From: Candidatus Methanophagaceae archaeon
GTDB taxonomy: Archaea; Halobacteriota; Syntropharchaeia; Alkanophagales; Methanospirareceae
Direction: 5' to 3'
Length of the DNA: 32,000 nt
Assembly (NCBI GenBank): GCA_003194425.1
Contig: PQXB01000002.1
Span: forward strand, 48,677 to 80,676
The notes under the pieces were generated by a model. That model saw only the letters and a list, made by a program, of their open reading frames with translations, ran no database searches and was not told the origin of the DNA. Below are positions 617-31,000 of this stretch, in pieces. Position numbers and translations under genes: made by a program. Position 1 is the stretch's first letter. Each line of letters opens with the position of its first letter.

Positions 617-898
617 TTAACCCCTCCTTTTTATCCTGTCCTCTGGTCTCGAAACGAGCAAGTCCCCGCTAACTCGCACTCGCACTCGCACCCGCTCCTC
701 TCCGTCTAAATCAAAAACAAAGACATTTCCCGCCTTTGCCACCTTCTTCTCTCTCTCGTCCTCAAGAACAAGCATATTCCGTGTCTCGTCTACCACCGCC
801 CCCCGCAGCCCCCGTAGATCTCTGTTACTGCTCTCTTCCACTTCTGCCCGCAACCCAATCAGCTCGTGTTGCAAGAAATTCTCTGCCGTTATTTTCAT
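617..898 (-). CDS. rnp1: RNase P protein component 1 (Rpp29/Pop4 family)
   Basis: [36 protein letters not shown] matches the Rpp29 core. It lies in the conserved L29-SUI1-Rpp29-S17 context and carries an RVRVRVRV repeat. Confidence 0.85.
672..695 (-). repeat. 6-bp tandem repeat (actcgc x3 plus acccgc) encoding RVRVRVRV inside rnp1
   Basis: Read directly from the sequence at 672-695. Confidence 0.9.
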
Positions 899-919
899 TT
901 TATCCTTCGCTTCCTTCGC

Positions 920-1225
920 TTAGCCCTCGCCCTCCAGAGTGTAGCCCATTTCACGCAGCGTCCCCTCAACAAACTTCTTCTGGTCGCCCTGAAGTTCAAC
1001 GCACCCCTTTTTCACAGTGCCGCCGCACGCGCACCGTGCCTTCAACTCCTTAGACAGCCCTTTCAAATCCACTTCCTTCTCATTTATTCCCTTTACAACC
1101 GTAATAATCTTCCCAAATCGCCGCCTCGTCGTCAAGACCTTCACCACCTGCTGCTCCTTCGCAATCTCCCTGCAGATGCACAAGTCTTTCGGCAGCCCGC
1201 ATTTCGAGCAAACTTCCCTGCTCAT
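920..1225 (-). CDS. Translation initiation factor SUI1 (aSUI1/eIF1 family)
   Basis: It has an N-terminal CSKCGLPKDLCIC zinc knuckle followed by RRRFGKIITVVKGI...LKELKARCACGGTVK...ELQGD, which is the SUI1 fold signature. Confidence 0.9.
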   Translation of the reverse strand: MSREVCSKCGLPKDLCICREIAKEQQVVKVLTTRRRFGKIITVVKGINEKEVDLKGLSKELKARCACGGTVKKGCVELQGDQKKFVEGTLREMGYTLEGEG

Positions 1226-1482
1226 TTCACCCTCTCGTTCTCTCTTCCCGCCGCCGCTGTTCTCGCTGCTGCCTCCTCCTGCTCCCTCGCTTCCTCCCGT
1301 TCAACCGTTTTTATCCGCGCTATTGCTCTTTTTACCTCCCTTATTCTACCCGGATTATCCGGCGCTCCCCCCGTGGCAATTACGCCCCGCTCACGCATCA
1401 AATCCGTCTCCAAACTCTCTAACTCCTCCCTCCTCTCTTTCCCACTCATCTTCCTTATTTCGTCAATTCTAAATATGCTCAT
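1222..1482 (-). CDS. rpl29: 50S ribosomal protein L29 (uL29) with a charged C-terminal tail
   Basis: IRKMSGKERREELESLETDLMRERG...REVKRAIARIKTV matches uL29. It has 4-nt overlaps with both neighbours and follows S3 as expected. Confidence 0.85.
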   Translation of the reverse strand: MSIFRIDEIRKMSGKERREELESLETDLMRERGVIATGGAPDNPGRIREVKRAIARIKTVEREEAREQEEAAARTAAAGRENERVK

Positions 1483-2264
1483 TCTCCCTCTCTTTCCTTC
1501 TTCCCTTCCACTTCCTCGCCTTCCTTCTTCCTTTCCACTTCCCCGCCTTCCTTCTTCCTTTCCACTTCCTCGCCTTCCTTCTTCCCTTCCACTTCCTCGC
1601 CTTCCTTCTTCCCTTCCTCTCCCTTCTCTGCTTCAGATTTTACCGGTTTTGGCTTTAACTCCGCATTTTTATTCACAGCGACCACGCGAAGAGCGTCAGG
1701 CACTTTTGCGTCTGGCTTCACAATCCAGACCCTCACGCCAATAACCCCCGTCCTTGACTTCGCGATTGCGTAGCCACGATCCACAATCTCCTCCGCGACT
1801 ACACCGCAATGTTTTATGTAGCCGTCGATCATCTTTTCCATACGACCCCGCGGTCCCTTGAGCTTGCCCGACATTATAATTTCGCAGCCCAACGCCCCTC
1901 TGTCCATTATTCGTTGCAGCGTTGACCTGCCTGCCCGTCGGAAATGCCAGCCTCTTTCGATGAGTTTTGCGAGTCGGTTAGCCATCAACGACGCGTTCAA
2001 GTCCGGCACGGAAATCGGTTGCACATCAATTTGCGGGTTGTCCAGTTCTTGTTTCCGGGCTACATCTTCTGTCAGCTGTTTTATCCGCCGCCCATCTTTT
2101 CCAATTATCATCCCCGGCTTCTCAACGTTCACCGTTATCTGCGTCCCCATCGGGGTCCTTTTCATTTCCATTCCCCCGTACCCCGCCCGCTCCAACTCCT
2201 TCTCAAAAAACTCGTCCATCCGAACCTTCTTTATCCCTTCCTTCACAAAAATCTTCTCTATCAC
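1479..2264 (-). CDS. rps3: 30S ribosomal protein S3 (uS3) with a repetitive C-terminal extension
   Basis: A KH-domain core is present: EKPGMIIGKDGRRIKQLTEDV...ERGWHFRRAGRSTLQRIM..GALGCEI. The tail is (KKEGEEVEG)n. Confidence 0.95.
   Translation of the reverse strand: MIEKIFVKEGIKKVRMDEFFEKELERAGYGGMEMKRTPMGTQITVNVEKPGMIIGKDGRRIKQLTEDVARKQELDNPQIDVQPISVPDLNASLMANRLAKLIERGWHFRRAGRSTLQRIMDRGALGCEIIMSGKLKGPRGRMEKMIDGYIKHCGVVAEEIVDRGYAIAKSRTGVIGVRVWIVKPDAKVPDALRVVAVNKNAELKPKPVKSEAEKGEEGKKEGEEVEGKKEGEEVERKKEGGEVERKKEGEEVEGKKEREGE
1483..1630 (-). repeat. 27-bp tandem repeat (four full units at 1504-1611 plus degenerate flanks) encoding the uS3 tail
   Basis: Units start at 1504, 1531, 1558 and 1585 (ccttccacttcctcgccttccttcttc and close variants). 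The tract is pyrimidine-rich on the + strand, so purine-rich on the mRNA. Confidence 0.9.
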
Positions 2265-2305
2265 TTTCCTCTCCTTTTCATTTCCTTCTCCTACCTTTCC
2301 CCCAC

Positions 2306-2845
2306 CTAACTCTTCTCCCCCTCTTCCCTTAACACCATTTCAATCGTAACCGTCTCGGTGTTCTTTGCGGTGGCACGACCAAAGGCTCGCGGCATCGTCC
2401 CTTTTAAGGTCCGACCTTTCTTCGTCGCAGTGTGCCAAATCCGCATCGTTTCAGGGTCAAGCCCCTTGTACTCCGCGTTCCCCATCGCAGACCGCAGCAG
2501 CCTCAAAATCTCCGCACTCGCCTTCACCGGGTACCGCCCTGCGTCCCACTTCCATTTTTTCAACCCCCGCCGGTGCCCGACCTTCTTCTTGTGCCGCTTG
2601 AACGGTACTGCTGCACGCTTCTCCAAGACCGCCTCCAAGAACGTCTCCGCTTCCTCCACCTTCTTCCCTTTTACCGCCCTGCAAATCTCGAACGCGTGTT
2701 TAGGCGAAATGTGTAGTTCGTGTGCCATCGCCCTCGCAGTCGTTTCAGGATCGACTTCGGTCCCAGTTTTAGTTCCTGTTTTAGTTCCTGTTTTAGTTCC
2801 GGCTCCGGTCTTGTTCCCGTCTACGCAATATTTTACCCTGCCCAT
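2306..2845 (-). CDS. rpl22: 50S ribosomal protein L22 (uL22) with an N-terminal TGTK repeat
   Basis: ARAMAHELHISPKHAFEICRAVKGKKVEEA...VPFKRHKKKVGHR...GRYPVKA is a typical archaeal L22. Confidence 0.9.
   Translation of the reverse strand: MGRVKYCVDGNKTGAGTKTGTKTGTKTGTEVDPETTARAMAHELHISPKHAFEICRAVKGKKVEEAETFLEAVLEKRAAVPFKRHKKKVGHRRGLKKWKWDAGRYPVKASAEILRLLRSAMGNAEYKGLDPETMRIWHTATKKGRTLKGTMPRAFGRATAKNTETVTIEMVLREEGEKS
2764..2799 (-). repeat. 12-bp tandem repeat x3 (ctgttttagttc) encoding TGTKTGTKTGTK in uL22
   Basis: Read directly. Degenerate copies continue to about 2817. Confidence 0.9.
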
Positions 2846-2884
2846 TTTTTACATTCTTTACCTTTTTTACTCTGCCTAACTACC

Positions 2885-3349
2885 TCACCTCAGAGGCACA
2901 TATTTCGAGGACCTCGTAGCCCCGACGCCCGCAGCACCGTGCAACACCCGTTTCCGCGTCAGTGCAAGCTCGCCCAAATAATGCCCTATCATTTCTGTCT
3001 TTATCTCCACGTACTCAAAACTTTTCCCGTTGTGAATCCCAACTTTCTTCCCAACCATTCCAGGCAGCACAAGAGCGTCCCTCAAATGCGTCTTAACGCT
3101 CTCGCCCGCCTCGCTCGCCTCGCCCCCGCCGCTCACCGACTTGACCGACTTGAGAGCCTCAAGCAGTTTATTTTCGCCCTCTCGCAGCCCCCGCTTCAAT
3201 TTCCGCCGCTGCCTCGCGCACATTAATTCCGCCAAATCCTCAAGCCTCATCTTCTTCAACTTCGCCAGCGTGTAGCCACGAAAAGTGAACTCCTCTTCCT
3301 TCTTTTTTAGCGTAGTCTTTGATTTAGACTTCCTCTTCTTCTTTCCCAT
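2885..3349 (-). CDS. rps19: 30S ribosomal protein S19 (uS19) with an internal low-complexity insert
   Basis: [14 protein letters not shown]...RRKLKRGL...[45 protein letters not shown]-like core. The insert [18 protein letters not shown] lies at about 3098-3150. Confidence 0.9.
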   Translation of the reverse strand: [154 protein letters not shown]

Positions 3350-3387
3350 TTTTAACCTCCTCTTTTCTCTTTAGTCAATTTTCAATT

Positions 3388-4224
3388 TCAACCTTTTCCC
3401 CCCCGCCCTGTTCTCTTTGCCGCGATGCTGCCTACTTTTCTTCCAGGTGGGGCTCCTTTACCAGGTGTCTTGGACTTACCGACGTGTTGGTGCCCACCAC
3501 CGCCGAAGGGGTGGTCGACCGAGTTCATTGCGACGCCTCTCACTGTTGGATATTTCGCTGCACGTGCCTTCATTTTGTGGTACTTCTTCCCTGCTTTTAC
3601 AAAAGGTTTTTCAGTCCGACCGCCGCCTGCGACAACCCCAATCGTGGCGAAGCAGTCCGAAGAGAGCCACTTCTTCTTCCCGCTCGGCATCACCACGAGC
3701 GTCTTCCCTGCTCCTGCTCCAGTTCTTCCGCCTGCTCCAGTTCTCCCGCCTGCTCCTACCCCTCTTCCTGCTCCTGTTTCTTCCGTCTCCGTCTCCTGCT
3801 CGTGAGCGAGCAGCGTAGCAAAATTGCCTGACGCCCTCGCAAACTTACCACCGTCGTTCGGTCTCGCCTCCAAGTTGCAGACTGTGATTCCTTCGGGAAT
3901 GCAGCGAAGAGGGAGAGTATTTCCTGTTTTTATCGCCGCGGACTCGCCGTAAACCATCTCGTCCCCCACCCCAACGCCCTCCGGCACAACCACAAATCTC
4001 TCCTCTGTTTTTTCCTCCTTCTCCCCTCCTTCTCGTTTTTCAATCGTTAAGCGAGCAATCGGCGTACTCCTCGCAGGGTCGTGCACAATTTCCGCGATTT
4101 TCCCCAACACAGTCTCATTTTTATTCACCCGCAAATGCTCGAGTTTCCCCTTGTACTTGTGCGAGGGAGCTTTAAATGTGGGCGAACCTCTTCCCCGCCG
4201 CTGCGCAATTATTCTTTTTCCCAT
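3388..4224 (-). CDS. rpl2: 50S ribosomal protein L2 (uL2) with an internal repeat insert
   Basis: GKRIIAQRRGRGSPTFKAPSHKYKG...GNTLPLRCIPEGITVCNLE...KYPTVRGVAMNSVDHPFGGGGHQH matches uL2. The insert is ETETEETGAGRGVGAGGRTGAGGRTGAGAG. Confidence 0.95.
   Translation of the reverse strand: MGKRIIAQRRGRGSPTFKAPSHKYKGKLEHLRVNKNETVLGKIAEIVHDPARSTPIARLTIEKREGGEKEEKTEERFVVVPEGVGVGDEMVYGESAAIKTGNTLPLRCIPEGITVCNLEARPNDGGKFARASGNFATLLAHEQETETEETGAGRGVGAGGRTGAGGRTGAGAGKTLVVMPSGKKKWLSSDCFATIGVVAGGGRTEKPFVKAGKKYHKMKARAAKYPTVRGVAMNSVDHPFGGGGHQHVGKSKTPGKGAPPGRKVGSIAAKRTGRGGKG
3713..3748 (-). repeat. 18-bp tandem repeat x2 (cctgctccagttcttccg / ...ctcccg) within a longer low-complexity insert (about 3706-3800) in uL2
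   Basis: Read directly from the sequence. Confidence 0.85.
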
Positions 4225-4308
4225 TTTTCGTCTCTCCTTTCCTCTCTCCCCCTTCTTCTCTTCTTCTCTCTCCCCCTTCCTCTCTTCTTTCTAATCCTTC
4301 CGCTCTAA
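4225..4308 (-). repeat. Homopyrimidine (+ strand), i.e. sense-strand homopurine, intercistronic spacer between rpl23 and rpl2
   Basis: This is an 84-nt C/T-rich tract. The motif ctctctcccccttc occurs at 4242-4255 and again at 4266-4279. Confidence 0.85.
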
Positions 4309-4563
4309 TTATAAAACTCCAAGCGAGGTTGCGACCTCTTTCGCCTTGCCCTCCTCTTCCAGTTCAATTATCGCTTTCTTCTCGCCTTTGAAAGTCAGCA
4401 TCGTCCTTACGCTCCGCACCGACGCCTCAAACACTCGCTCCACCTCGCTCGCTATTTCTCTCTTGTTCGCCTGTAGGTCGACGATAAACTGCAGTTTGTT
4501 CTCCGAATCAATCATCAGCGTCGCCTTTTCACTTGGAACAATGTGCTTCAGTTTCAGTCCCAT
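4309..4563 (-). CDS. rpl23: 50S ribosomal protein L23 (uL23)
   Basis: The 84-aa ORF contains KLQFIVDLQANKREIASEVERVFEASVRSVRTM...GEKKAIIEL, a uL23 pattern. It sits in the expected position between L4 and L2. Confidence 0.85.
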   Translation of the reverse strand: MGLKLKHIVPSEKATLMIDSENKLQFIVDLQANKREIASEVERVFEASVRSVRTMLTFKGEKKAIIELEEEGKAKEVATSLGVL

Positions 4564-5429
4564 TTTTTACCCTCTCTTTTAGTCAAGGTTTTTTCTTTAG
4601 AGAAAAGGTTGTTAGAGAAAAAGTTGAGAGCGGACTCGGTCCAGATTGTCAGCCTGCCGGGGTGCGTCCCGGGTGCGAGCAGTTCGGCGTTCAACTCCGC
4701 CACACGAGCTACCTCCACGCCCGGCAGATTCTTCGCACCTGTCTTTATTTTCGCCTCTGCCACCGTTCCTGCCGCCGCTTCCACCTCTGCCTCTGCCACC
4801 GCCTCTTTTCCAGAAACGACGATTAAAACGCTCTTTCTACGCTTGTACCTTCTGCCGCGCATTTTTCCTCGCCCTGCCCGCACTTTCCTCTCCTTCGCAC
4901 GGAGAAGGTCTTCCCAGACGCCGGCGGACTTTAAAAAATCCTCTACCTCCGCTGTTTTTCCCAAGCCTGCGAGCGAGTCTTCCACCACCAACGGCAGTTC
5001 AACTTCTTCGCCGAATTTGTGCCCTCTGCTTCTCACGATTTCGGAGTCTGCGGTGGCTGCAACGGCAGACCGCACCGCCCTCCGCCGCTCTTTCTTGTTT
5101 ATTTTCTGCTTCAAAACTTTTTCGGTTTTTGGCGGGTGTGCTCGTCTTCCGCCGACAGTCTGCGGGGCGCGTGCTGCTCGGTTGCCTGTTTTTATGCGAG
5201 CAACTCTTGAGACGCCTCTGCCGACGCCCCAGCTCTCAGCCGAGGTTCTCTTCCCTGCTAAAATGTCAGAGCCTTTTGGCTGAAACCTGTGCGACTGCAC
5301 TGCCAGCACCGCCCGTTTTATCAGGTCGGGCCTGTACTCCTCGCTAAAGACCGAGGGCAGCGCCACCTCCCGCACAGCCTTCCCCGACAAGTCCAAGACT
5401 TTGACTCTCCCTTCTGCCTCTTTTATCAT
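4554..5429 (-). CDS. rpl4: 50S ribosomal protein L4 (uL4) with an Ala/Glu-rich insert
   Basis: YRPDLIKRAVLAVQSHRFQPKG...RVARIKTGNRAARAPQTVGGRRAHPPK matches uL4. The insert AVAEAEVEAAAGTVAEAK is at about 4751-4806. The 3' end overlaps the rpl23 start by 10 nt. Confidence 0.9.
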   Translation of the reverse strand: MIKEAEGRVKVLDLSGKAVREVALPSVFSEEYRPDLIKRAVLAVQSHRFQPKGSDILAGKRTSAESWGVGRGVSRVARIKTGNRAARAPQTVGGRRAHPPKTEKVLKQKINKKERRRAVRSAVAATADSEIVRSRGHKFGEEVELPLVVEDSLAGLGKTAEVEDFLKSAGVWEDLLRAKERKVRAGRGKMRGRRYKRRKSVLIVVSGKEAVAEAEVEAAAGTVAEAKIKTGAKNLPGVEVARVAELNAELLAPGTHPGRLTIWTESALNFFSNNLFSKEKTLTKREGKKWD

Positions 5430-5444
5430 CTCTTCTCTTTTCTT

Positions 5445-6473
5445 TTATTTTTTGCGAATATAAATAATCTCCGGCACGCTCGGTTTAGAGTGCGATCTTA
5501 TCGAGTGCGAGAGTCTTACAAGCCGCTTCTTCGGTCCTGGAACGCTCCCTTTCACCAAAATAAACCCGTTCCGCACCTCCCCGTACTTCACGAAGCCACC
5601 CTTTGGCGTTACCTCCTCGCCGTTCTCCCCGATTTTCAGGACTTGCTTGTTGTACTCGGTTCGCTGCTGGTAGCCGGTCTGCCCGAGTTGAGGGATTTTC
5701 CAGCGCACCCGCCGCGGCTTCCAAGCCCCAATGCAGCCCACGTGGCGACCTCTTCCCGACCGCCGCGCCTTTGCATTCTGAATCATCACACCCCACCGCT
5801 TCACGGGTCCCTGCGTGCCTTTCCCAGTCGTTACTGCGGTAACATCCACAAAGTCGCCGTCTTTGAAGACCTCGCCGATTTTTAACTCCTTTCCAAGCAC
5901 TTCTCTCGCGTACTCAAGGTCTTTCTCAACCTCGACGCCCCCCCCGCTCATCTTTATTTCCATCGTCTCGTGCTTCTTCTTCGGCACCCCGCTCACGAGT
6001 TTTGGCTGCGTTGAAATTAGCAAAGTCACGCTAAAATCGTGCGCGTTGCCCTTGACGCTCGCACTTTTGATTAGGTCTGCCACCTTCTCAAAACCCGCTT
6101 CAGCCCCTGCGCCTGCCTCTGCGCCTGCCTCTGCGCCTGCCCCTGCGCCTGCCCCTGCGCCTGCCTCTGCTCTCACTTCGGTTACCACCCGCTTTCCGTA
6201 GCTGGTATTTTTGTAAAGCCGAAGACCTTCTACCCTCACAGGCGGCGTCTCGATTACAGTCGCAGGAACGGAAATCTCCATTCCTTTTGTCAGGCTGTGC
6301 GGGGCGTTGTCTGCTAAAATGAGGTGCGTCATTCCGGCTTTGTAGCCCGCAAAACCCTGAATCCTTCTGCCTGCCGCTCTCTCTTCTCTTTTGATCCTGC
6401 AAGTCTCACTTCTCGCCCGCGTTCTCGGTGAGAAGGCGAGTGAGCCTCGTCTTGGTCGGTGTCGTTTGGACAT
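5445..6473 (-). CDS. rpl3: 50S ribosomal protein L3 (uL3) with a GA/EA repeat insert
   Basis: RPRRGSLAFSPR...GFAGYKAGMTH...TAVTTGKGTQGPVKRWGV...GRHVGCIGAW.P.RV matches uL3. Confidence 0.95.
   Translation of the reverse strand: MSKRHRPRRGSLAFSPRTRARSETCRIKREERAAGRRIQGFAGYKAGMTHLILADNAPHSLTKGMEISVPATVIETPPVRVEGLRLYKNTSYGKRVVTEVRAEAGAGAGAGAGAEAGAEAGAGAEAGFEKVADLIKSASVKGNAHDFSVTLLISTQPKLVSGVPKKKHETMEIKMSGGGVEVEKDLEYAREVLGKELKIGEVFKDGDFVDVTAVTTGKGTQGPVKRWGVMIQNAKARRSGRGRHVGCIGAWKPRRVRWKIPQLGQTGYQQRTEYNKQVLKIGENGEEVTPKGGFVKYGEVRNGFILVKGSVPGPKKRLVRLSHSIRSHSKPSVPEIIYIRKK
6097..6170 (-). repeat. 12-bp tandem repeat x6 (gcgcctgcctct / gcgcctgcccct) encoding [26 protein letters not shown] in uL3
   Basis: Units are at 6097, 6109, 6121, 6133, 6145 and 6157. 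Confidence 0.9.
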
Positions 6474-7844: not shown

Positions 7845-7983
7845 TAAAGGGAGAGAGAAGGGAGGGAGTAGGAGAAAGAGGAGTAAAGGAGAGAGGGAGA
7901 GGGAGAGGGAGAGAGAGGGGAGGGAGTAGGAGAGAGGAGAAGAGGAGAGAGGAGAAGAGGAGAGAGGAGGAGAGGAGAGAAAG
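7845..7983 (+). repeat. About 140-nt nearly pure homopurine tract between tRNA-Leu and ftsZ, with an internal mirror repeat
   Basis: Only A/G apart from a few T in gta/agta. GGGAGGGAGTAGGAGA occurs twice (7860-7875 and 7918-7933). A 35-nt perfect mirror repeat spans 7931-7965. Confidence 0.9.
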
Positions 7984-9057
7984 ATGAAGCAATTTGGAAG
8001 AGGAATGGTTGCGGCGGAGGGAGAAGCAGTAAAGTCAATGGGGAATGAGGAATTAGAAAGCCTCTTGGAGCGGTCAAAGACGGTCATAAAAGTGATTGGC
8101 TGCGGCGGGAGCGGGACGAACACGATTCAGCGAATGACCGAGGAGGGAATTTTCGGGGCTGACCTCTTTGCTCTTAACACCGACGCTCAGCACTTGTTGT
8201 TCTCAAAGGCGGAGAACAGGCTCTTGATCGGGAAGAAAACGACACGCGGGCTGGGAGCGGGCAGCATTCCGCGGCTGGGCGAAGAAGCAGCGAAGGAGAA
8301 CGCAGACGACATAAAATCAATCGTCGAGGACGCGGATATGGTTTTCGTAACTTGCGGCTTGGGCGGCGGAACCGGGACAGGAGCGGCACCGGTAGTCGCA
8401 CAGGCGGGACAGGACGCGGGTGCTCTCACGATTGGCGTGGTGACGCTGCCGTTCAATGCCGAGGGGGAAGTGAGGCGAGAGAACACTTCTACAGGGCTTG
8501 AAACGCTGCGTGGGTGCACTGACACGCTGATTGTGATGCCAAATGAGCGGCTCTTGGATGTGGTTCCGAGGCTGCCGTTGAACGACGCTTTTCGGGTCGC
8601 TGACGATGTTTTGATGCGGGCGGTAAAGGGGATAACAGAATTAATTACAAAACCCGGTCTGATAAATCTGGACTTTGCCGATGTCAGGACGGTTATGAAA
8701 GACGGAGGAATGGCGATGATCGGGTTCGGCGAGTCAGACGGGCAGAACAAGGCGGCGGATTCAGTGAAACGGGCGTTGAGCTCGCCTCTGCTTGAAGTTG
8801 ACGTCTCGGAAGCGAAGTCGGCGCTGGTGAATGTGACCGGTGGCGAGGATATGACCGTTGAGGAAGCGGAAGGGGCGCTTCAGGAGGTGTACAGAATGAT
8901 GAACCCCGCGGCACGGATAATTTGGGGCGTTCAGGTGAGTCCCGAGTTGAAGAATAAGATGCGAACCCTTCTCGTTGTCACGGGTGTGAAGTCGGAGCAG
9001 ATTTTTGCTCGCAGGGCATTGAAAAAGGAGAAATATGGGATTGAAATTGTGCATTAG
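7984..9057 (+). CDS. ftsZ: Cell division protein FtsZ
   Basis: [17 protein letters not shown]...[10 protein letters not shown]...GLGAGS.P..G...A...[20 protein letters not shown] is the tubulin/FtsZ signature. The true start may be an internal Met. Confidence 0.95.
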
Positions 9058-10704: not shown

Positions 10705-11111
10705 AAGTGGAAAAAAGCGAGGCGGAAAAAAGTGAGGCGGAAAAAAGCGAGGGAGGGGAGAAAGAGTTAAAGAGCGCGATTGTGCAGGACTACGAGACCG
10801 GGGAGGTTTTGATGCTCGCCCACATTGACGAGGAGGCGCTGCGACTCTGCGTAGAGACAGGGAGGGCGCACTACTGGAGCAGGAGCCGGGGGAAACTCTG
10901 GCGGAAAGGGGAAGTCTCGGGGAACGAGCAAATAATTAAGGAGATTTTGATCGACTGCGACGAGGACGCGGTGCTGCTGAAAGTGGAGCAGGTCGGCGGA
11001 GCGGCGTGCCACATGGGTTACAGGTCTTGCTTTTACCGCAGGCTGAACGGTGAGGTCGTGGGGGAGAAGGTCTTCGAGCCGGAGGAGAAGTACGGAAAGA
11101 AGGCGGTTTAG
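10701..11111 (+). CDS. hisI: Phosphoribosyl-AMP cyclohydrolase HisI with an N-terminal KSEAE repeat
   Basis: [20 protein letters not shown]...[25 protein letters not shown]...[29 protein letters not shown] is the HisI signature, including the Cys/His metal ligands. The ATGA overlaps the GT2 stop. Confidence 0.9.
10710..10754 (+). repeat. 15-bp tandem repeat x3 (gaaaaaagcgaggcg) encoding KSEAE x3 at the HisI N-terminus
   Basis: Units are at 10710, 10725 and 10740. Confidence 0.9.
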
Positions 11112-11627: not shown

Positions 11628-14102
<2,475 letters not shown>

Positions 14103-19046: not shown

Positions 19047-19121
19047 AAACTTTCTGTTCCGTAAAACATTTTAGAAAAAAATTTCTTTAGTAAAGTTTAC
19101 TTTAAAAAAGAAAAGTTTTTT

Positions 19122-19563: not shown

Positions 19564-20208
19564 TCATTTTTCCTCTCTCTCCCCTCCTTTCTTCTCCTTT
19601 ACCTCCCCTTTCTCCTCTGAGTCGGAGGTAGCAGAAGCAGTAGAAACGGAAAACGGAGCGTTCCCGTAGTAGCCGATTTCCCGCTCCTCCTCCATGCTCA
19701 CGAGATAAGAAGGGACAGTAACCCTCGCGCCGTTAACCGCGATGTGGCCGTGAACGATGAATTGCCGAGCCTGTTTTATCGAGTTGGAGAGGTCTTTCTT
19801 AAAAACCCGCGTCTGCAGTCTCCTTTCCAAAATGTCTTCTATTCCCATCGCCAAAACATCCTCCAATCCCAATCCCAAACTCGTGCCCGCAGTTTCAACT
19901 TCTCCAACTTCTCCAACCCCTCCAAATTCTCCAACCGCCTCTTTCAGCACGCCTTTCCTCCTTAAGCCTGCTAAAATCTCCTCCCGCTTTTTCATTGTGT
20001 GCTCCGTAGGCGTCCCTCCTGCGATTTCCGCTAAAATCTTTCTCACCTCCCGCCGGTAGTCCCGCACAAAACTCTCCGCCTTCCACACCTCGCTCTTGTT
20101 CTTCAGCCCGTACTTCTCCGCTAACTCCTTCTCCTCTTTTATCCGCTCCGCCACCCACGGTCTTCGTGGTCGCTCGTACGACTTCTTTCTCTTCTTTGGA
20201 TGCCCCAT
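19564..20208 (-). CDS. rps4: 30S ribosomal protein S4 (uS4) with an internal repeat and a purine-tract-encoded C-terminal tail
   Basis: GHPKKRKKSYERPRRPW...EKELAEKYGLKNKSEVWKAES...RRLQTRVFK...ARQFIVHGHIAVNGARVTVPSYLV matches uS4. A 9-bp repeat (ttctccaac-like) is at about 19896-19937. Confidence 0.9.
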   Translation of the reverse strand: MGHPKKRKKSYERPRRPWVAERIKEEKELAEKYGLKNKSEVWKAESFVRDYRREVRKILAEIAGGTPTEHTMKKREEILAGLRRKGVLKEAVGEFGGVGEVGEVETAGTSLGLGLEDVLAMGIEDILERRLQTRVFKKDLSNSIKQARQFIVHGHIAVNGARVTVPSYLVSMEEEREIGYYGNAPFSVSTASATSDSEEKGEVKEKKGGEREEK

Positions 20209-22399: not shown

Positions 22400-23055
22400 G
22401 GGCTTTCGTCGCAGTGGATTTGTCCAAAGAAATTCGGGCGAAACTAAAAGTAGTGCAGAAGCAGTTTGCAGATTTTGGGACAGTGCAAGGGCAGGAGCAG
22501 GGTCAGGAGCAGTTGAGACAGAAATTGAAGTTCATGAATCCGTGGCAGACGCACCAGACGGTGAAGTTTCTGGGCGAAGTCCCTGCAGAACGTGTTGTAG
22601 ATGTTAAAGTGGCGTTGGCAGGAGTGAGTCAGAGTCCGTTTGAGGTGGCGTTGCGGGGTGTGGGCTTCTTTCCTGTGCCTCCGCTGAAGACGAAGACTGG
22701 GAAGGCGAAGGCGAGAGTGAAAACCGTAAGGGTTGTTTGGGTTGGGATTGAGGAAGGGGCGGAAGAGTTGCGGGCGTTGCAGGAGGAGGTGGAGTCGCAG
22801 TTGCAGGCGGCGGGCGTTGACTTTCCGCCTGAAAGACGAGGACCGTTCAGTGCGCACGTTACGCTCTGCCGTGTGAAGAAGCCGTTGTCGAAGGACGAGT
22901 TGCAGGCGGTTCTGCGGAAGGTTGCGGAGTTGAAGGCGGTGGAAGTGGGGAGGACGCGAGTGGAGGTGCTGAAACTGAAGAAGAGCACGCTCACGCCGAA
23001 GGGACCTGTTTACGAGGATTTGTTTGTGAAGCGGTTGGGAAATCAGAGGGAATAA
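22396..23055 (+). CDS. thpR: RNA 2',3'-cyclic phosphodiesterase (ThpR/LigT, 2H phosphoesterase)
   Basis: MRAFVAVDL is followed by two HxT motifs (HQTVKFLGE and HVTLCRVK). GQEQGQEQ is encoded by a 12-bp x2 repeat at 22489-22512. Confidence 0.85.
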   Translation: MRAFVAVDLSKEIRAKLKVVQKQFADFGTVQGQEQGQEQLRQKLKFMNPWQTHQTVKFLGEVPAERVVDVKVALAGVSQSPFEVALRGVGFFPVPPLKTKTGKAKARVKTVRVVWVGIEEGAEELRALQEEVESQLQAAGVDFPPERRGPFSAHVTLCRVKKPLSKDELQAVLRKVAELKAVEVGRTRVEVLKLKKSTLTPKGPVYEDLFVKRLGNQRE

Positions 23056-23075: not shown

Positions 23076-23520
23076 ATGAATGAGCCGAAGAGAGTTACAT
23101 TAACAGATTTCTTGCACTTGAGAAAGGGGGGAGAGTATTGTTTGGGCTCGTTGGAGTTGCGGCTGCGGCAGAACGCGTTTAAAGTGGTTGAATTCCAGAG
23201 AAAGCGGTTGGAGAGCGTGGAAAAGAGCGTCCTCTTCAGAAGGAACGAATAAACCAGCACCGGCAGACGGTCGACGAGGCGAAGCGGAGTTTAATCGCAG
23301 GTTCGAGCATCTCGTGGCGTTGCACCGGAAGAGTCTGCAGGCTCTTACAGGGAAGTTGAACGCTCTGAGCCCGCTGGCGATTCTGTTCGCGGCTGCCTGG
23401 GGGGGAGGTGGTGAAAAGTGTGGCGGAGGTTGAGGTAGGAGGGGTGTTGAAAGTGCAGTTTAAGGACGGAGAAGCGGTTTCAGAGGTTAAGGAGAAGAGG
23501 GTTCTTTTTTCAGAAAAAAT
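23076..23520 (+). pseudogene. Remnant of an exodeoxyribonuclease VII large-subunit (XseA)-like C-terminus, fragmented over three frames
   Basis: Frame 0 gives a coiled-coil-like LELRLRQNAFKVVEFQRKRLESVEKS. Frame 1 gives HRKSLQALTGKLNALSPLAIL and frame 0 gives RGC (RGY-like). Frame 2 gives GGEVVKSVAEVEVGGVLKVQFKDGEAVSEVKEKRV. This follows the order of the XseA C-terminal signature (LSP..L.RGY....G.vv.s...v..Gd.l.v.l.DG...a.V). No N-terminal OB or catalytic part is present. Confidence 0.5.
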
Positions 23521-23574
23521 ACTTTACGATTTATTCAACACAGCACTACTTAACAGATTTGGAGAAAGAAGAAA

Positions 23575-24442: not shown

Positions 24443-25676
24443 ATCTTTCTTCTTTGAGTAACTGCCGCATCAAATCTCCTGCCCTCGCGTCCAACACGCC
24501 TCTGCCCGCAGCCAAGCTGCACTGTCTTGCGAAGATTTCGTCAAAATGATTTTGAGCGTGGGCTTGAGCGTGGGCTTGAGCGTGGGCTTGTGGCGAAGAG
24601 AAAATTGCGAACGGCACTGGCTCTCTCGTGTGCGTCCGCAGGGAGACGGGCGTGTAGTGGTCGGGCAAGACCAGGACTTTAAAATCCGCAAACTCCTGCT
24701 CCAACCCCTGTAACATTTTTCCCACAACCAGCGCGTCAAAATCCTCAATCGCCTTCACTTTCAGGTCAATCTCGCCGAGATGCCCCGCCTCGTCCGGTGC
24801 TTCTACGTGCAGCAAAACAAAATCCCGCTCCTTCAAACTCCGCAACGCGTTCTCCACCTTGCCCTCGTAGTTCGTGTCAAAATACCCTGTCGCACCCGGC
24901 ACCTCCACCGCCTCCAGACCCACGCACCGCCCGATCCCTTTTATGAGGTCAACCCCCGAAATCACCGAACCGCCACCACTCACTCCGTACCGCCCACTGA
25001 ACGCAGGCATTTCAGGCTTCCTGCCGCCGCTCCAGAGCCACACCAAATTCGCCTTCTCCGCCTTCCCAAATATTTCCCTCGAGGCAAGCACAATCTCCCG
25101 CAAAACCCCCTCTCTCGGCAGTTCCTCCTCTACCCGTGCGCCGATTATGTCGTGTGGCGGCGCTCCTCCAATCTCTTTCGCCCCCGCAAAAATATTATTT
25201 TTGGATTCGGACTTGAGAACCAAAATGTTTCGGTAACTCACTCCTGGATAAAATTCGCACCCGCTCCCCCCTAATTCCTCGTTAAGCGCTGCAATTAATC
25301 CCCTCGCCTCTTCGTTTGTCGGATGCCCGCCGCTGTAGTCCGCAAACTTTCCCTCTCGCACAGTTACGAGGTTGCACCTAAATGCGAGGTCGCCCTCCTC
25401 GAGAGGCACACGCATTCCCAACGCCTCCAGCGGACCCCGACCAGTGTAATATTTCGCAGGGTCGTAGCCGAGAATAGAGAGCGTAGCAATGTCGCTCCCC
25501 GCTGCCAGCCCCTCTGGAATTGTTTTCACCAACCCGCAGACGCCCGCGGTAGCGACGAAGTCGAGGTTTGGCGTTGCTGCGATTTGCAAAGCCGTCTTGC
25601 CGCCCCGTTCAGGAATCGGGTAGTCCGCCATTCCGTCCCCTATCAAAATTACATATTTCATCTCCTCGTCTAACAA
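24441..25676 (-). CDS. apgM: Cofactor-independent phosphoglycerate mutase, archaeal type (ApgM)
   Basis: KYVILIGDGMADYPI...GGKTALQIAATPNLD...GSDIATLSILGYDP..YYTGRGPLEALG...HVEAPDEAGH matches ApgM. Confidence 0.9.
   Translation of the reverse strand: MLDEEMKYVILIGDGMADYPIPERGGKTALQIAATPNLDFVATAGVCGLVKTIPEGLAAGSDIATLSILGYDPAKYYTGRGPLEALGMRVPLEEGDLAFRCNLVTVREGKFADYSGGHPTNEEARGLIAALNEELGGSGCEFYPGVSYRNILVLKSESKNNIFAGAKEIGGAPPHDIIGARVEEELPREGVLREIVLASREIFGKAEKANLVWLWSGGRKPEMPAFSGRYGVSGGGSVISGVDLIKGIGRCVGLEAVEVPGATGYFDTNYEGKVENALRSLKERDFVLLHVEAPDEAGHLGEIDLKVKAIEDFDALVVGKMLQGLEQEFADFKVLVLPDHYTPVSLRTHTREPVPFAIFSSPQAHAQAHAQAHAQNHFDEIFARQCSLAAGRGVLDARAGDLMRQLLKEER
24552..24587 (-). repeat. Perfect 12-bp tandem repeat x3 (ttgagcgtgggc) encoding QAHAQAHAQAHAQ near the ApgM C-terminus
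   Basis: Units are at 24552, 24564 and 24576. Confidence 0.9.
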
Positions 25677-25717: not shown

Positions 25718-26386
25718 ATGGAGACAGAAATACCGCTGAGGGAAATAATGGTGCGTCGGGTAGTGAAGGGCGACGGGGAGTTGAGCGTGCGGGAGGCGGC
25801 GGAGCTGATGAAGAAATACGATGTGGACAGCGTTGTAGTCGTTAGACGGGGCGGAGGAGAAGGAGGTGAGCCAGTGGGAATTGTCACGCACGGCGACATA
25901 ATTAACGGGGTGGTAAGTAAGGACACAAAGCCCAGCAGCGTGAAATTGAAGGAGATAATGACGACGCCGCTGATAACTGCCTCTCCCAACGACCGCCTGT
26001 CCGAGGTAGCGAAGAAGATGGCGGAGGAGCGGATAGGAAAAATACCAGTGCTTGAGGACGGCAAGTTGGTCGGCATCGTTGCGGATGTTGATATTCTCTC
26101 GGTCTCGTCGGAGATGAACTCGATTTTGGCGGATTTAATCGAGATGCACGTCAGCGAACGAGAGGTTCTTAGGGCAGAGACACTGAGGACAGGGCGAGAG
26201 GGCGGAGAAGACAGGGAGGAAGGAGAAGAAGGAGAAGAAGGTGAAGAAGGTGAAGAAGGTGAAGAAGAAAGAATGGGGCAGGGAATATGCGAAAAATGCG
26301 GCAGCTTCTCAAGTAGCCTGGAACTGAAAGACGGGGTAATGGTCTGCGAGACCTGCAGCGAGGAGATGGAAAGGGTAGAGGGTTAA
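25718..26386 (+). CDS. CBS-pair domain protein with a C-terminal zinc ribbon and an acidic repeat linker
   Basis: IMVRRVVKGD...VDSVVVV...PVGIVTHGDII and IMTTPLITASPNDRLSEVAKKMAEERIGKIPVLEDGKLVGIVADVDIL form two CBS motifs. The C-terminus has CEKCG...CETC. I chose the Met at 25718 rather than the ORF-track start at 25568, which overlaps apgM. Confidence 0.8.
   Translation: METEIPLREIMVRRVVKGDGELSVREAAELMKKYDVDSVVVVRRGGGEGGEPVGIVTHGDIINGVVSKDTKPSSVKLKEIMTTPLITASPNDRLSEVAKKMAEERIGKIPVLEDGKLVGIVADVDILSVSSEMNSILADLIEMHVSEREVLRAETLRTGREGGEDREEGEEGEEGEEGEEGEEERMGQGICEKCGSFSSSLELKDGVMVCETCSEEMERVEG
26222..26266 (+). repeat. 9-bp tandem repeat x5 (ggagaagaa x2, ggtgaagaa x3) encoding (GEE)5 in the CBS protein linker
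   Basis: Units occur every 9 nt from 26222. Confidence 0.9.
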
Positions 26387-26400
26387 ATTATTTATCCATT

Positions 26401-26972: not shown

Positions 26973-27938
26973 GAAGACCGCCTCCGCTTCTGGCAGGTTG
27001 GGCGAATCAACTAACCTCGCGATCCTCTTCTCCCCTTTAGATTTTCGGAGGTACAACCTGAAAGTAGCGGTGTGGCCAACGATGTGGCCGCCGATGGGTC
27101 TTGTAGGGTCGCCGAAGAAGGCGTCCGGTCTCACCATCACTTGATTAGTTATCATCACGACCGCGTTGTTCAGGTCTGCGAACTTGAGAGCGTCGTGCAG
27201 GTGCTTGTTTATCTTCTGCTGCCTGCCCGCCAGCGTCCCGCGTCCTACATATTCGCTCCTAAACTGCGCAGTCGCAGAGTCAATTATCATTAGCCGCACG
27301 GGCTTCTCTGCTCCCTTCTTCTTCAGTTCCTCTGCGAGCTCACCAGCCTTCTCAACCAGCAGCATTTGGTGGTTCGAGTTGTAGGCTCGTGCGATGTGAA
27401 TGTTCTTGAGAACCTCCTCGTAGTCAAGTTCTGCACCCACTCCTTCCCCCGCACCTTCTCCCTCGCCCTTAAGACCCTCTACCATCTCTTTTATCCGCTC
27501 GGGTCTGAAAGTGTTCTCGGTGTCGATCATTATTGCCGAGCCGTCCAAACCGCCCCTCTCCACAGGCAGCTGCACATTTACAGCGAGTTGGTGAGCGATT
27601 TGCGTCTTCCCGCTCCCGAATTCGCCGTAGAACTCAGTCATCGCCTGCGTCTCGAGACCGCCGCCGCCAAACAGGTTGTCGAGCGATTTAGAGCCTGTGG
27701 ACAGCCTGCCCACGTCCTTCCGTCGTTCCAATATTTTGTCGCCGGTCTCGAACCCGCCAATGTTGGCAGCCTTCCGGGCAGCGTTGATAATTTTCGCCGC
27801 GGTCGCCTCTCCGATCTCTGCAGTCTCCACCAACTCCGCGGGCGACGCCACTGCTACCGCCTCCAACGAATTTAACCCCGCCTCACGCAACTTCTCCGCA
27901 ATCGCAGGTCCAACGCCGGGCAACTCTTCTAAGTCCAT
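26943..27938 (-). CDS. radA: DNA repair and recombination protein RadA
   Basis: An N-terminal HhH is present ([20 protein letters not shown]). Walker A is GEFGSGKTQ. Also present: [14 protein letters not shown] and [15 protein letters not shown]. The insert [18 protein letters not shown] is at about 27432-27474. Confidence 0.95.
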
Positions 27939-28011
27939 TTTCTCTCTTTTCTCTTCTCCTTCTTGCGTGGCTAACTAATTGGCATTTTAGTAGTTAAACC
28001 ATTCAAAATTC

Positions 28012-28053
28012 AAATACTCTGTTAGAGAATAGAAATACTCTGTTAGAGAATAG
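28012..28053. repeat. Perfect 21-bp tandem duplication (aaatactctgttagagaatag x2) between the atpA stop and the radA start
   Basis: Copies are at 28012-28032 and 28033-28053. Each contains the small palindrome CTCT-GTT-AGAG. Confidence 0.9.
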
Positions 28054-28077
28054 AAGATTATTCTACTTGTTGTTTCA

Positions 28078-31000
28078 TTAAACTATCTCCTCAAACTCGT
28101 CTTTCATCTCCTGCTGAATCTGCTCAAACCTCTCCCTAAACCCCTCACTCGGCACATATTTCATCCGCGACAAAGCGTCCTTAATCCGCATCCGTTCCAG
28201 TCGCTCCACGCCCACGCCGCTCTCTATCGCCTGCATCGCACCCTCGTACCACTGCAGAATGACCTTCGCCATCAAGTACTGCTTCTCGAGCGAGCAGAAC
28301 GAATCGACCTCGTGGTAAGCGTTCTGCTGCAGGAAATCCTCTCTTATCATTCTTGCAACCTCCAAAGTTCCACGCTCGCGAGCAGGCAGTGCGTCCGCAC
28401 CGACGAGTTGGACGATTTCCTGCAGCTCCGCCTCCTTCTGCAGCAGCCCCATCATTTTCTCTCGCTGCTCCGTGAAGTCAGGAGCCGTGGCTTTCTCAAA
28501 CCATTCCTGAAGAGCGCCGAGGTAGAGCGAGTAACTGCGTAGCCAGCTTATCGCGGGGAAGTGCCGCCTGTCAGCAAGCGAAGAATCGAGTGCCCAAAAG
28601 TCGCCCACCACTCGCAGCGTGTTCTGCGTGACAGGCTCTGAGAAGTCGCCTCCTGGCGGCGAGACCGCACCAACAACCGTGACCGAGCCCACTCGCTCCT
28701 CCTCTCGCTCCTGCACCTGCGAACCCGAACCGAGCGTCTTTACCCTGCCCGCACGCTCGTAGAAGTCCGAGAGCCGTGTCGCCAGGTAAGCGGGGTAGCC
28801 CTCCTCGCCGGGCATTTCCTCGAGCCTGCCCGAGATTTCTCGCAACGCCTCCGCCCACCGCGATGTAGAGTCCGCCTGAATCGCGACATCGTAGCCCATA
28901 TCGCGGTAGTACTCGGCGATCGTGATTCCTGTGTAAATCGACGCCTCTCGAGCAGCAACCGGCATATTCGAGGTGTTTGCAATCAGCGTTGACCGTTCCA
29001 TCAGCGACTCACCGCTGTAAGGGTCAACGAGCTTCGGAAAATCCTCCAAGACCTCTGTCATCTCGTTCCCCCTCTCGCCGCAGCCGATGTAGACGATGAC
29101 CTGTGCGTCCGCCCACCTCGCCAACTGGTGCTGCATCACGGTGTTGTGAAGAATCATCGGTCCAAAACCAGCGACGAAATTGTGCGAACCCGGAACCACG
29201 AAGTCGTAAACATCCTTTACACCTTTGATTTCCTCAATCTCTGTAATCTCGTCGTAAAAAACATAATCCAATCTCTCTGCAACCCACCGCAACCTCGCAT
29301 TTTCCGACAACTCGCAAAATTTCTTGAAAGTCCGAACGCTCATTCTCTCTCTCCCCTGCTCTCTCCGCTCTCCCTGCTCTCTCCGCTCTCCCTGCTCTCT
29401 AAAATAATTGGATGTGTTCACGCCAAGACGCTCCAATTCCGCGTGTGGTCGCCCCATTTCCTCGTAGGCACGCTTAAAAAACTCCGCCGACGCCGGCACG
29501 ATGTCCTCTGCCGTGTAACTCCTCTTACCGTCCGCCAAATATTCTTTTATCCGCTTGAACTTCTCAAATTCGCTCTTCACGGGCAGACTGCAAGCCTCGT
29601 AAAACCGCTTTATCTCCTCCTTCCCCCTTACAAAAATTCGGTAGTAGATCTTCCCTTCAATAACACGCTCCTTTAAGGAGTGAAGGATTCCAAACCGCAG
29701 CAAGAGGTAAGAGACGCTGAGTTGCATCTCCCGGCTCGCGGTTGTAAGTTCCAACTCGTTCTTTCCCGCACCCACGTAGCCGTCAGAAGCGAAGTAAGCG
29801 CCCACGAATCTGCCCGCTACTTCGTCCGGCGACCGCATCACAATGTCTGGCACCCTGCACGAAGACGATTTCTTCTCGCCTGTTCCCGGAACGCCCAACC
29901 GCCTCAAAAGCCTGACCAGCACCGAACTCTCGACGACCGAGCACTCCACCGTGTTGCACCGCTCCTGCTTTGCTGTGAGTCCAAACAGGCTTTTGGACAA
30001 CTCTTCAAACCTCGCCCTCAGCGATCCGTCGTTGTTGTAGAACTCAACCGTTCTCGGTTTAACCGAGCCGTCTCCAATCACGAGCCCGAGAAACTCTGCG
30101 AAGTCCCCGTCAAATTCATTCGGGATTCTCACCGCCTCATCACAGACCCGCTCCTCGTCAAACAACTCGCTACCGAGTCTCTGCACCGCTCCCTTGAAAA
30201 ATATCCGCCTCGGCATCACGAGATAATCGCCCGCGTTTAACGCCCTGCACTCAACCTCCTTTATCTCCAAATCAGGCGTTACCGTAAAGAGTTTATGAAT
30301 TGGTGTTATTTCTGCCGTCTTCCCCGTCCTCGTTTTCACACGATACAAAACATCAGTTTTGCCTTTGTAAACCGTGTTCGCGCCTTTCTCCTTTAACCGC
30401 CCGTCGTTCAGCGAATAAACGCCAATTGCGTCTTTTAAAGCCGTGTACTCCTCGTGGCTGTCTGTATTGCGGACCTTCTCGCCGTTCTCCTTGTTCTCAT
30501 CGTAAACTTCCCTCATTTTCCTCACCGTCCCGTCAGCGAGCATTACAGGCGTGTCTGGGCTAACGCATTTCCCAGTCCCAAACCCTCCTGGAATCGCCCC
30601 TGTCCCTCCTTTCGCGATTGGGAAGAAGGTGTCGTTAATTCGCTGCCCAGTCAGGAGAGGCACGTCAGGGTCTAACTTCTCCTTGTACGGCCGCCCTTTC
30701 CGCACCGGCCACTTCTGCATCAACTTCAACTCCACTTCCTCTCCCCCCCGTGCTCCGCTTGCGCTGCCTGCGCCGCCTGTGCCGCCTGTCTGCAACCTCG
30801 CAATTGTTTCGTCGACCGTGAAATCGCCCTCTCTCAACTCCAAGAGCCTGCCCCGCAGTCCTGGCGGCACGAGAATTTTGTGCTTAATCACTTTTGACTC
30901 CTGAACCACGCCCAAAATGTCCCCGCCCGCTACTTCTTTTCCCTCCTCCGCAGTGGTGTGCGAGGGCGTGAATTTCCACTTCTTCCCGCGGTCGAGTGCG

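Follow-up and report, generated by a model that had tools for sequence, protein, structure and literature searches.

What has furnished so many of the most conserved genes of an uncultivated methane-oxidizing archaeon with short, in-frame tandem repeats? The question is raised by a stretch of 32,000 nucleotides (contig PQXB01000002.1 of assembly GCA_003194425.1, positions 48,677 to 80,676; hereafter, the window) from a Candidatus Methanophagaceae archaeon, a member of group 1 of the anaerobic methanotrophic archaea (ANME-1). In the window, ribosomal proteins, RNA polymerase (RNAP) subunit D (RpoD), the pseudouridylase Cbf5 and several central enzymes carry arrays of repeated units. We consider it likely that these arrays are chromosomal coding minisatellites (variable-number tandem repeats, VNTRs) of ANME-1a that arise by slippage on purine-rich seeds and are filtered for reading frame and for tolerant sites, and that the resulting protein inserts are probably near-neutral. 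What is notable about them is their density in core genes, their saturated polymorphism at the level of strains, and their likeness to the repeats of the Borg elements of Methanoperedens.

Arrays were cataloged by using Tandem Repeats Finder (TRF), which returned 88 rows for the window that were merged into 56 arrays; those with a score of at least 50 are termed strong (Table 1). As a null model, codons were shuffled inside each of 35 genes 100 times, so that the amino acid content and codon usage of each gene were kept. At a score of at least 50, 19 coding arrays are present in 16 of the 35 genes, compared with an expectation of 0.33 +/- 0.51 and a maximum of 2 in the shuffles. At a score of at least 30, we find 37 arrays in 21 genes, where 8.6 arrays in 7.6 genes are expected. 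The repeat period is divisible by three in all 19 of the strong coding arrays and in 33 of the 37 at the lower threshold; the four with other periods are weak and are no more than chance-level matches. Copies within an array match at 61-100%, and although many arrays reach 92-100%, few are perfect across all copies.

A first-pass annotation of the window had reported that conserved proteins carry repeats whose periods are multiples of three and whose units are specific to each gene. TRF arrays are present at essentially all of the positions that it listed, and units differ in both sequence and length. Its example in RadA (27432-27474) proved to be a region of compositional bias with no tandem repeat, and its N-terminal AtpA example is a weak array (30751-30788, score 48, 82% matches). 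The variation of the unit from gene to gene rules out a single inserted mobile element. Inteins were also considered as a source of the inserts and rejected, as the inserts are too short (4-45 aa) and lack intein motifs; the only intein is the one belonging to AtpA.

Table 1. Repeat arrays and associated features in and beside the window. Coordinates are positions in the window; x gives the number of copies; length differences are relative to the window.
Feature	Position	Strand	Repeat or content	Variation among strains
S10-type ribosomal-protein operon, uS17 to uL3	285-6473	minus	Pfam assignments	
uS3, C-terminal tail	1485-1624	minus	27 bp x5.1, (KKEGEEVEG)n, 94% sense purine	4 alleles, 27-bp steps 0/-27/-54/-81
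uL22, N-terminal	2766-2800	minus	12 bp x2.9, (GTKT)3	2 alleles
uL2, internal	3707-3776	minus	18 bp x2.4, (GAGGRT)n	4 alleles
uL23-uL2, intercistronic	4226-4306	minus	95% sense purine	+24 bp in one strain
uL4	4597-4626		strong array, 27% sense purine	
uL3	6103-6170	minus	12 bp x5.7, Gly-Ala/Glu-Ala repeat	6 alleles
Upstream of FtsZ, non-coding	7848-7984	plus	137 bp, 98% purine	9 length alleles among 10 strains
HisI, N-terminal	10709-10752	plus	15 bp x2.9, (EKSEA)n	3 alleles, -15/0/+15
PyrB, internal	12298-12363	plus	Ala/Gly/Glu array	6 alleles
GlyA	13456-13512	plus	9 bp x6.3, (GEA)6	5 alleles, -18/-9/0/+9/+18
ABC ATPase	17122-17146		9 bp x2.8	
CofC, RG repeat	17664-17709	minus	6 bp x6.3, (RG/RS)n	6 alleles
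CofC, LNEV repeat	18018-18059		12 bp x3.6	same length in all strains
RpoD stop/CofC start junction	18276-18342	minus	37-bp (12+12+13) unit	-37, -13, -1, +23 bp
RpoD, internal	18749-18828	minus	18 bp x4.4, E/K/G/R-rich, 100% purine	6 alleles
uS4, C-terminal	19896-19941	minus	18 bp x2.2	2 alleles, 0/+9
Cbf5 array 2, PUA domain	21106-21216	minus	12 bp x8.2, (GKEE/GKED)n	6 alleles
Cbf5 array 1, catalytic domain	21687-21821	minus	24 bp x4.3, (GEGGEKGR)n	8 alleles
ThpR, N-terminal	22488-22512	plus	12 bp, (QGQE)n	4 alleles; other strains 24-51 bp longer than window
ApgM	24552-24590	minus	12 bp x3.2, (QAHA)3, 44% purine	-12 bp in single covering strain
CBS-domain protein	26187-26267	plus	9 bp x7.1, (GEE)n	-9 bp in single covering strain
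AtpA with intein	28078-31329	minus	Intein_splicing aa 262-729, LAGLIDADG_3 aa 506-578	
Inside AtpA intein	29344-29400	minus	18 bp x2.8, (REQGER)n	-18 bp in single covering strain
GNAT acetyltransferase	left of window		(ACSGS) x2-4, pyrimidine-rich on sense strand	
PDDEXK nuclease	left of window		(EVEVE) x2-4 and KDKNV	
452-aa protein	left of window		(GTRGSG) x2-3	

The strongest evidence on the nature of the arrays comes from sister strains. Their loci were located from a Cbf5 homologue and then by exact look-ups with the repeat-free proteins uS11 and uL23, which gave 20 further loci; the resulting set consists of 13 contig sets, 98-99% identical to the window, from independent assemblies deposited in NCBI or ENA. 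The closest Cbf5 homologue in a collection of 5.8 billion proteins is about 99% identical outside the repeats and 37 aa shorter, and it departs from the Cbf5 of the window only in the copy number of its two arrays. The contig that encodes it is syntenic with the window, with 82 mismatches and 11 indels over 12.3 kb, and all seven coding indels are multiples of three and lie in arrays.

The full census of indels between the sister strains and the window comprises 194 events, of which 155 fall inside arrays or at most 12 bp from them; all arrays taken together account for 12.7% of the sequence. Lengths that are multiples of three account for 111 of 123 coding indels, versus 14 of 71 non-coding ones. 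The 12 remaining coding indels are situated at the RpoD/CofC junction array, at the first base of uS19 or at an alignment edge. Strong arrays have two to eight alleles each among 8-13 strains, and the alleles differ by whole units. The called lengths of repeat-free genes (uS11, Alba, Spt5, uS19, uL29, SUI1, uS17 and others) are constant across strains. In the array upstream of FtsZ, steps include -13, -7, -1, +8 and +14 and are not limited to multiples of three. Contingency-type on/off switching was considered and rejected, since no frame-shifting indels occur inside coding sequences; in a test for phase variation, changes that are not multiples of three proved to be confined to the FtsZ leader and the RpoD/CofC junction.

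Arrays with more copies vary more. The number of alleles correlates with copy number (Spearman rho 0.65) and with array length (rho 0.77), and eight of nine arrays with at least four copies vary, versus 5 of 18 with fewer than three, as slippage predicts. Even strain pairs with the least divergence (0.15-0.2% of sites) already have unequal lengths at 7 of 17 and 9 of 15 arrays. The proportion of arrays that differ has a median of 0.56 and no correlation with the distance in single-nucleotide polymorphisms (SNPs; rho 0.01). Differences between strains in array length are therefore saturated, and these lengths turn over much faster than point substitutions accumulate.

A few observations concern the two sites where length is unconstrained and certain unusual repeats. 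The 37-bp repeat at the RpoD/CofC junction, which the first-pass annotation had listed as non-coding, is real, but it extends across the stop of RpoD and the start of CofC. The C-terminal tail of RpoD and its overlap with CofC vary by strain (called RpoD lengths are 244-262 aa); 425 bp are seemingly missing here in one scaffolded strain, but at an assembly gap. The FtsZ leader array is GGAGG/GAGAG-like and resembles Shine-Dalgarno sequences. The true FtsZ start is uncertain, because the length given by gene callers differs by strain (350, 357, 372 or 379 aa). Where the uL4 C-terminus overlaps the uL23 start (4554-4573), 10 of 10 sister strains have 12 bp more (GAAAAGAGAGGG on the sense strand), which makes uL4 295 aa rather than 291 aa; this in-frame, purine-rich indel is outside the arrays called by TRF. 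The "LNEVLNEVLNEV" repeat of CofC had also been listed among the examples of repeats. However, it is unvarying among strains, and an ELNEVLNEVL repeat is found in a distant ANME-1 relative (locus L015, 8193-8219, in an open reading frame (ORF) not confirmed as CofC). We therefore set it apart from the others; it looks like an old conserved motif.

The inserts occupy positions that spare the folded domains. Cbf5 is 405 aa long, versus about 333 aa in orthologues from Methanophagales and other Halobacteriota, and both of its arrays are pure insertions; both are missing from 38 more distant aligned orthologues (53-72% identity). In an AlphaFold2 model of Cbf5 (mean predicted local distance difference test score, pLDDT, of 83), both arrays are coil with pLDDT below 50; the elements that flank them exceed 90, as does most of the remainder. 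Array 1 is modeled between strand 93-101 and helix 137-154, and array 2 between strands 303-306 and 351-355. The 80 comparison genomes are syntenic with the window only in the Cbf5-uS13-uS4-uS11-RpoD-CofC block, and proteins outside this block were compared with PDB sequences. The uL2 array belongs to an insertion of about 30 aa that falls, in the numbering of the H. marismortui protein, between residues 134 and 137. In RpoD, 29 aa stand in place of a 14-aa loop of the T. kodakarensis protein, and in GlyA about 29 aa replace two residues of M. jannaschii serine hydroxymethyltransferase (SHMT). Relative to the aspartate carbamoyltransferase (ATCase) of P. abyssi, PyrB has two internal insertions and a C-terminal extension, and its internal array is a 17-aa insertion. 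The uS3 array forms a C-terminal tail in alignments to solved structures. The arrays of HisI, uL22 and ThpR are N-terminal, and that of uS4 is C-terminal. The uL3 array coincides with a segment that varies among other archaea and so is not considered a net insertion. Thus, the alignments to orthologues and structures bear out the proposal that these are lineage-specific, in-frame, low-complexity insertions and tails in conserved proteins, and the expected location in loops is seen in uL2, RpoD, GlyA and PyrB, with a tail in uS3 and coil in the Cbf5 model.

These comparisons also revealed features of the host proteins themselves. PyrB (11634-12836) extends 59 aa past the end of solved ATCases, with a purine-rich low-complexity stretch, and its end overlaps the start of GlyA (about 12709/12760-14103) by some 77-128 nt. 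RpoD (18300-19046, minus strand) has no counterpart of about 60 residues of the T. kodakarensis subunit (roughly 150-209), which suggests from the alignment that it lacks this sub-domain. PDB chain 9o17_AC, a solved archaeal uS3 of 318 aa, has a long low-complexity tail at its C-terminus with repeats of the EKPA type, so that a repeat tail on this protein has at least one precedent among archaea.

The arrays lie in a strongly asymmetric sequence background. Both GC and AT skews reach +/-0.3-0.44 and reverse at every change of gene direction in the window, so that the sense strand is always purine-rich; a bias between replication strands was rejected as the cause for the same reason. Purines make up 61.1% of the sense strand outside the arrays, with 69% at the first codon position, 52% at the second and 62% (0.622 before rounding) at the third, and 65.7% of the spacers between co-directional genes. 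Because the enrichment extends to spacers and to codon position 3, it operates at the level of the nucleic acid and is more than a matter of amino acid choice. Arrays are 85.4% purine on the sense strand, and their residues are chiefly Glu (29%), Gly (24%), Lys (11%), Ala (9.5%) and Arg (7%). They account for 1,242 of 27,750 coding nt (about 4.5%) and thus hardly change the overall purine content.

The first-pass annotation had described the purine-rich strand of the repeats as always the sense strand. Of 21 strong arrays, 19 follow this rule regardless of gene direction, and the exceptions are the ApgM (QAHA) and uL4 arrays; the GNAT acetyltransferase array outside the window also departs from it. 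It had also remarked that no repeat introduces a stop codon. Every stop codon contains T and a purine, so this property is largely automatic for DNA that is all purine or all pyrimidine.

The 35 ORFs were scanned with Pfam, which identifies the window (G+C of about 0.53) as a core-gene region of an archaeal chromosome. Supported identities include uS17, Rpp29, SUI1, uL29, uS3, uL22, uS19, uL2, uL23, uL4 and uL3; FtsZ, Spt5, HisI, Alba, PyrB, GlyA, CofC, RpoD, uS11, uS4 and uS13; and Cbf5, ThpR, eS6, ApgM, the CBS protein, RadA and AtpA with its LAGLIDADG intein. The uS11, uL23 and Alba proteins are exact entries under ANME-1 cluster archaeon ex4572_4 or Methanophagales archaeon; an exact look-up returned no identical sequence on record for the uL3 and eS6 proteins. 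Since the window carries the S10 operon, FtsZ, RNAP subunit D, RadA and AtpA, and since its proteins are recorded in ANME-1 metagenome-assembled genomes, we take it to be chromosomal and not part of an extrachromosomal element.

The species is an uncultivated methane oxidizer known from the Guaymas and Pescadero basins. The genomes ex4572-4, GCA_026133975.1 and "ANME-1 G37" represent one species, which belongs to ANME-1a and Methanophagaceae gen. nov. 3 (ANME1a sp003194425 in GTDB) and for which growth is predicted to be optimal at 68-72 C (Laso-Perez et al. 2023, PMC9894754, Supplementary Table 2). Such composition-based predictions may be inflated by the Glu/Lys/purine bias and by the charged arrays. 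The "ANME-1 G37" genome is one that we take to be from a 37 C enrichment.

Relatives of the species were collected by a profile search of genome contigs with a Cbf5 alignment, and strong arrays per kilobase of coding sequence (CDS) were counted by using one crude gene caller for all loci. The window and a sister strain have 0.66-0.74 arrays per kb. Among the matches listed, the density is 0-0.33 in the nearest ANME-1 genera (Cbf5 identity of 55-60%) and about 0-0.1 in sixty other Halobacteriota loci. The few arrays of the ANME-1 relatives include several in proteins with long or Pro/Thr-rich repeats. The species of the window is itself not among these matches, for which a species representative without an intact Cbf5 may be one reason, and no Cbf5 homologue of 60-90% identity was found in the 5.8-billion-protein collection. 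A published census reports that archaea are the domain with the lowest density of short tandem repeats, with no enrichment over simulated genomes (PMC12699852). Our own version of such a density gives 51 bp/kb for the window, a median of 18 and 11 for the shuffled window; it is suited to relative use only and cannot be set against the 1.02 bp/kb published as the archaeal mean, because ordinary archaeal loci score 18 in it.

How might such arrays form? The first step is apparent from the composition: the transcribed genes are strongly purine-loaded on one strand. A purine-only stretch is close to a two-letter sequence, in which short direct repeats would easily arise and act as seeds. Strand slippage during replication or repair would then gain or lose whole units; the pattern of length changes is that of a process far faster than point substitution whose rate rises with copy number, and the enzymology is our proposal. 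Selection clears changes that break the frame or the fold, as the data show: genes retain only units that are multiples of three, at termini and surface loops, and non-coding DNA retains any length. The products would be tolerated disordered segments of Glu, Gly, Lys, Ala and Arg, a composition that may be a by-product of GA-rich DNA read in frame rather than the mark of a designed peptide. An additional contribution is conceivable on general grounds. Homopurine/homopyrimidine tracts can adopt triplex DNA, and purine-rich RNA forms an unusually stable hybrid with its DNA template; both structures could stall replication in these genes, which are mostly highly expressed, and lead to more slippage.

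Several points weigh against this slippage model or its details. The sense strand is already 0.57-0.60 purine in the ANME-1 relatives that have few arrays, so purine loading alone is insufficient, and codon shuffles that keep composition yield almost no arrays. An extra lineage-specific factor is needed behind the 5- to 10-fold excess over relatives. As regards neutrality, each array is kept, at least as a remnant, in every strain, and array composition resembles the K/E polyampholyte clusters that were read as functional in the Borg study. As regards the data, metagenomic contigs are population consensus sequences that are possibly chimeric between strains, and the sequence covered is about 38 kb of a genome of roughly 1.6-1.8 Mb. 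Gaps that fall on arrays mean that the longest copy numbers (uS3 and the two in Cbf5; 111-140 bp) are possibly partly mis-assembled.

In a bolder reading, which we regard as a possibility on the unlikely side, the chromosome of this ANME-1a species hosts a lineage-specific, highly active repeat-writing process that is the same as or related to that of Borgs, with a safeguard against repeat instability lost or with some inserts functional. If this is true, the ribosome, RNA polymerase, the H/ACA pseudouridylase and central enzymes are continuously acquiring new disordered segments. A dedicated, lineage-specific generator of repeats like that of Borgs, or a mutator that results from a lost or changed replication or repair factor (candidates are a flap endonuclease, a mismatch endonuclease or a helicase), would likewise go beyond ordinary slippage. 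We judge it unlikely. It would account for an array density 5- to 10-fold above that of the nearest ANME-1 genera, whose purine loading is similar, and for the properties shared with Borgs, namely units that are multiples of three in ORFs only, units unique to each locus, a purine or A bias of the coding strand and rapid change within populations. However, the 32-kb window revealed neither a gene nor a signature of such a mechanism, array identities of 61-100% seem to fall short of the near-perfect repetition reported for Borgs, and variability that depends on copy number is the expectation of plain slippage.

The inserts could instead be selected functional disordered regions, as has been proposed for the amino acid repeats of Borgs, in which charged Glu/Lys/Gly linkers serve solubility, the tuning of interactions in ribosome, RNAP or H/ACA assemblies, or docking, with their copy-number variation being adaptive tuning; this we find quite doubtful. 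Every strain does retain each array in some form, the E/G/K/A/R composition is consistent and similar to the Borg polyampholyte clusters, and placement never disrupts a domain. Yet the variability in length is saturated with no preferred size, the unit sequence varies by gene, and orthologues from sister genera work without arrays. Similar purine-rich arrays also occur with free lengths in spacers and leaders and, in one case, in an intein; this array inside the AtpA intein argues against a function specific to the host protein.

An improbable variant places selection at the level of RNA, with the arrays as "purine-loading devices" that raise the purine content of mRNA. EBNA-1 Gly-Ala repeats and Plasmodium low-complexity segments have reportedly been read in this manner by Forsdyke. 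Consistent with such a role, arrays are 85% purine against a background of 61%, their orientation tracks gene direction, transcribed spacers are purine-rich too, and the predicted optimal growth temperature is 68-72 C. However, the arrays add only about one percentage point to overall sense purine, a gain too small for selection to be plausible; the ApgM, uL4 and GNAT arrays are not purine-rich; and the species was presumably enriched at 37 C.

Of the sequencing itself it must be asked whether gaps and contig ends coincide with arrays, and they do: 7 of 7 mappable scaffold N-gaps in the sister assemblies lie on arrays (ThpR, PyrB twice, RpoD twice, uL22 and uS3; loci L083, L090, L091 and L096), and several true contig ends are on or beside arrays (window positions 11745-11765, 21145 and 24578), which indicates that the repeats fragment short-read assemblies of this organism. 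Although the assemblies are seemingly short-read, it is scarcely credible that the repeats or their copy-number differences are artefacts of assembly or sequencing, given that arrays are at identical sites in at least 13 independent assemblies from NCBI and ENA, for a species from both the Guaymas and Pescadero basins; that frames are always intact and identical alleles recur in separate assemblies; that arrays of 44-80 bp, which are well short of reads and k-mers, show as much polymorphism as long ones; and that the restriction to multiples of three is missing from non-coding arrays, a distinction that an artefact would not make.

The closest known system is that of Borgs, which carry fast-evolving tandem repeats (Schoelmerich et al. 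2023, PMC9879509). The suggestion of the first-pass annotation that nothing comparable is described for archaea does not survive that report, and slippage with selection is a well-known class of mechanism. Both sets of repeats have units that are multiples of three in ORFs, and such units are a minority in intergenic DNA (14-38% in Borgs, compared with 20% of non-coding indels here; PMC9879509). In both, units are unique to the locus, copy number changes fast within populations, the coding strand is biased to purine (A), and products are mostly disordered, include K/E-rich classes and leave domains intact. However, Borgs are giant linear extrachromosomal elements whose repeats are virtually absent from the host chromosome, whereas the ANME-1 arrays are chromosomal (PMC9879509). 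The repeats of Borgs are found preferentially in extracellular and membrane proteins, and those described here are in core cytoplasmic ones (ribosomal proteins, RNAP subunit D, Cbf5, SHMT and ATCase). The bias is to A in Borgs and to G+A here, and Borg repetition is generally perfect, whereas ours ranges from near-perfect, with a few arrays perfect throughout, to degenerate (61-100%).

Low-complexity inserts in the housekeeping proteins of Plasmodium falciparum provide a second comparison, which the first-pass annotation had drawn. They too are lineage-specific inserts in loops of conserved proteins, with a composition that mirrors nucleotide bias. Their length polymorphism between isolates is attributed to slippage, and the strong polymorphism found among the 13 sister strains, in the comparison of relatives that the annotation had suggested, makes the analogy apt. 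Plasmodium differs in being an AT-rich eukaryote with Asn/Lys-rich and often homopolymeric tracts, whereas here an archaeon with 53% G+C and a strand-specific purine bias has minisatellites of 6-27 bp that encode E/G/K/A/R. The coding VNTRs of bacteria are similar in that copy number changes by slippage, variability increases with the number of copies, and in-frame variants in protein length result. However, bacterial VNTRs and contingency loci typically number a few per genome, mostly in surface or virulence genes, and many act as on/off switches with units that are not multiples of three. In the window, arrays are present in almost half of the core genes, and their coding variation is never frame-shifting. 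Purine loading (Szybalski's rule), which is marked in thermophiles, resembles the background found here in that the excess follows transcription and extends to codon position 3 and transcribed spacers, but it is a trend in composition and does not concern repeats, and similarly loaded ANME-1 are array-poor.

In the literature searched, there is no report of such arrays for ANME-1 or for any cellular archaeal chromosome. A 2026 study of strain diversification in ANME-1 discarded structural variants of 50 bp or less and so would not have caught them.

The arrays show that the most conserved archaeal machines can carry fast-evolving disordered inserts. They also amount to a natural experiment that marks insertion-tolerant surface sites of the ribosome, RNAP, Cbf5, SHMT and ATCase. 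Borg repeats had been presented as peculiar to those elements. As a chromosomal counterpart in another methane oxidizer, the arrays make the mechanism of repeat formation testable by comparative genomics, in which replication and repair genes that differ from those of repeat-poor ANME-1 can be compared. Enrichment cultures of the species exist, so tests on transcripts, peptides and ribosome structure are feasible. In practical terms, the arrays are strain markers of very high resolution for an abundant uncultivated methane oxidizer, and they alter protein lengths in databases.

Some further observations were made in and around the window. Arrays of differing copy number continue for about 6 kb beyond its left end, as seen in sister strains L092, L094 and L095 (14300-20255); the proteins that carry them are listed in Table 1. 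The spacer between RpoD and uS11 has a 50-bp A/T-rich insertion (19067-19116) in the window only, which is missing in 10 of 10 covering sister strains. The stretch from ThpR to eS6 (23100-23560) has unusually many indels between strains (163, 20, 9, 5 and 1 bp), and small ORFs of 58 aa and 99 aa are called there in sister strains, the latter of which matches Exonuc_VII_L.

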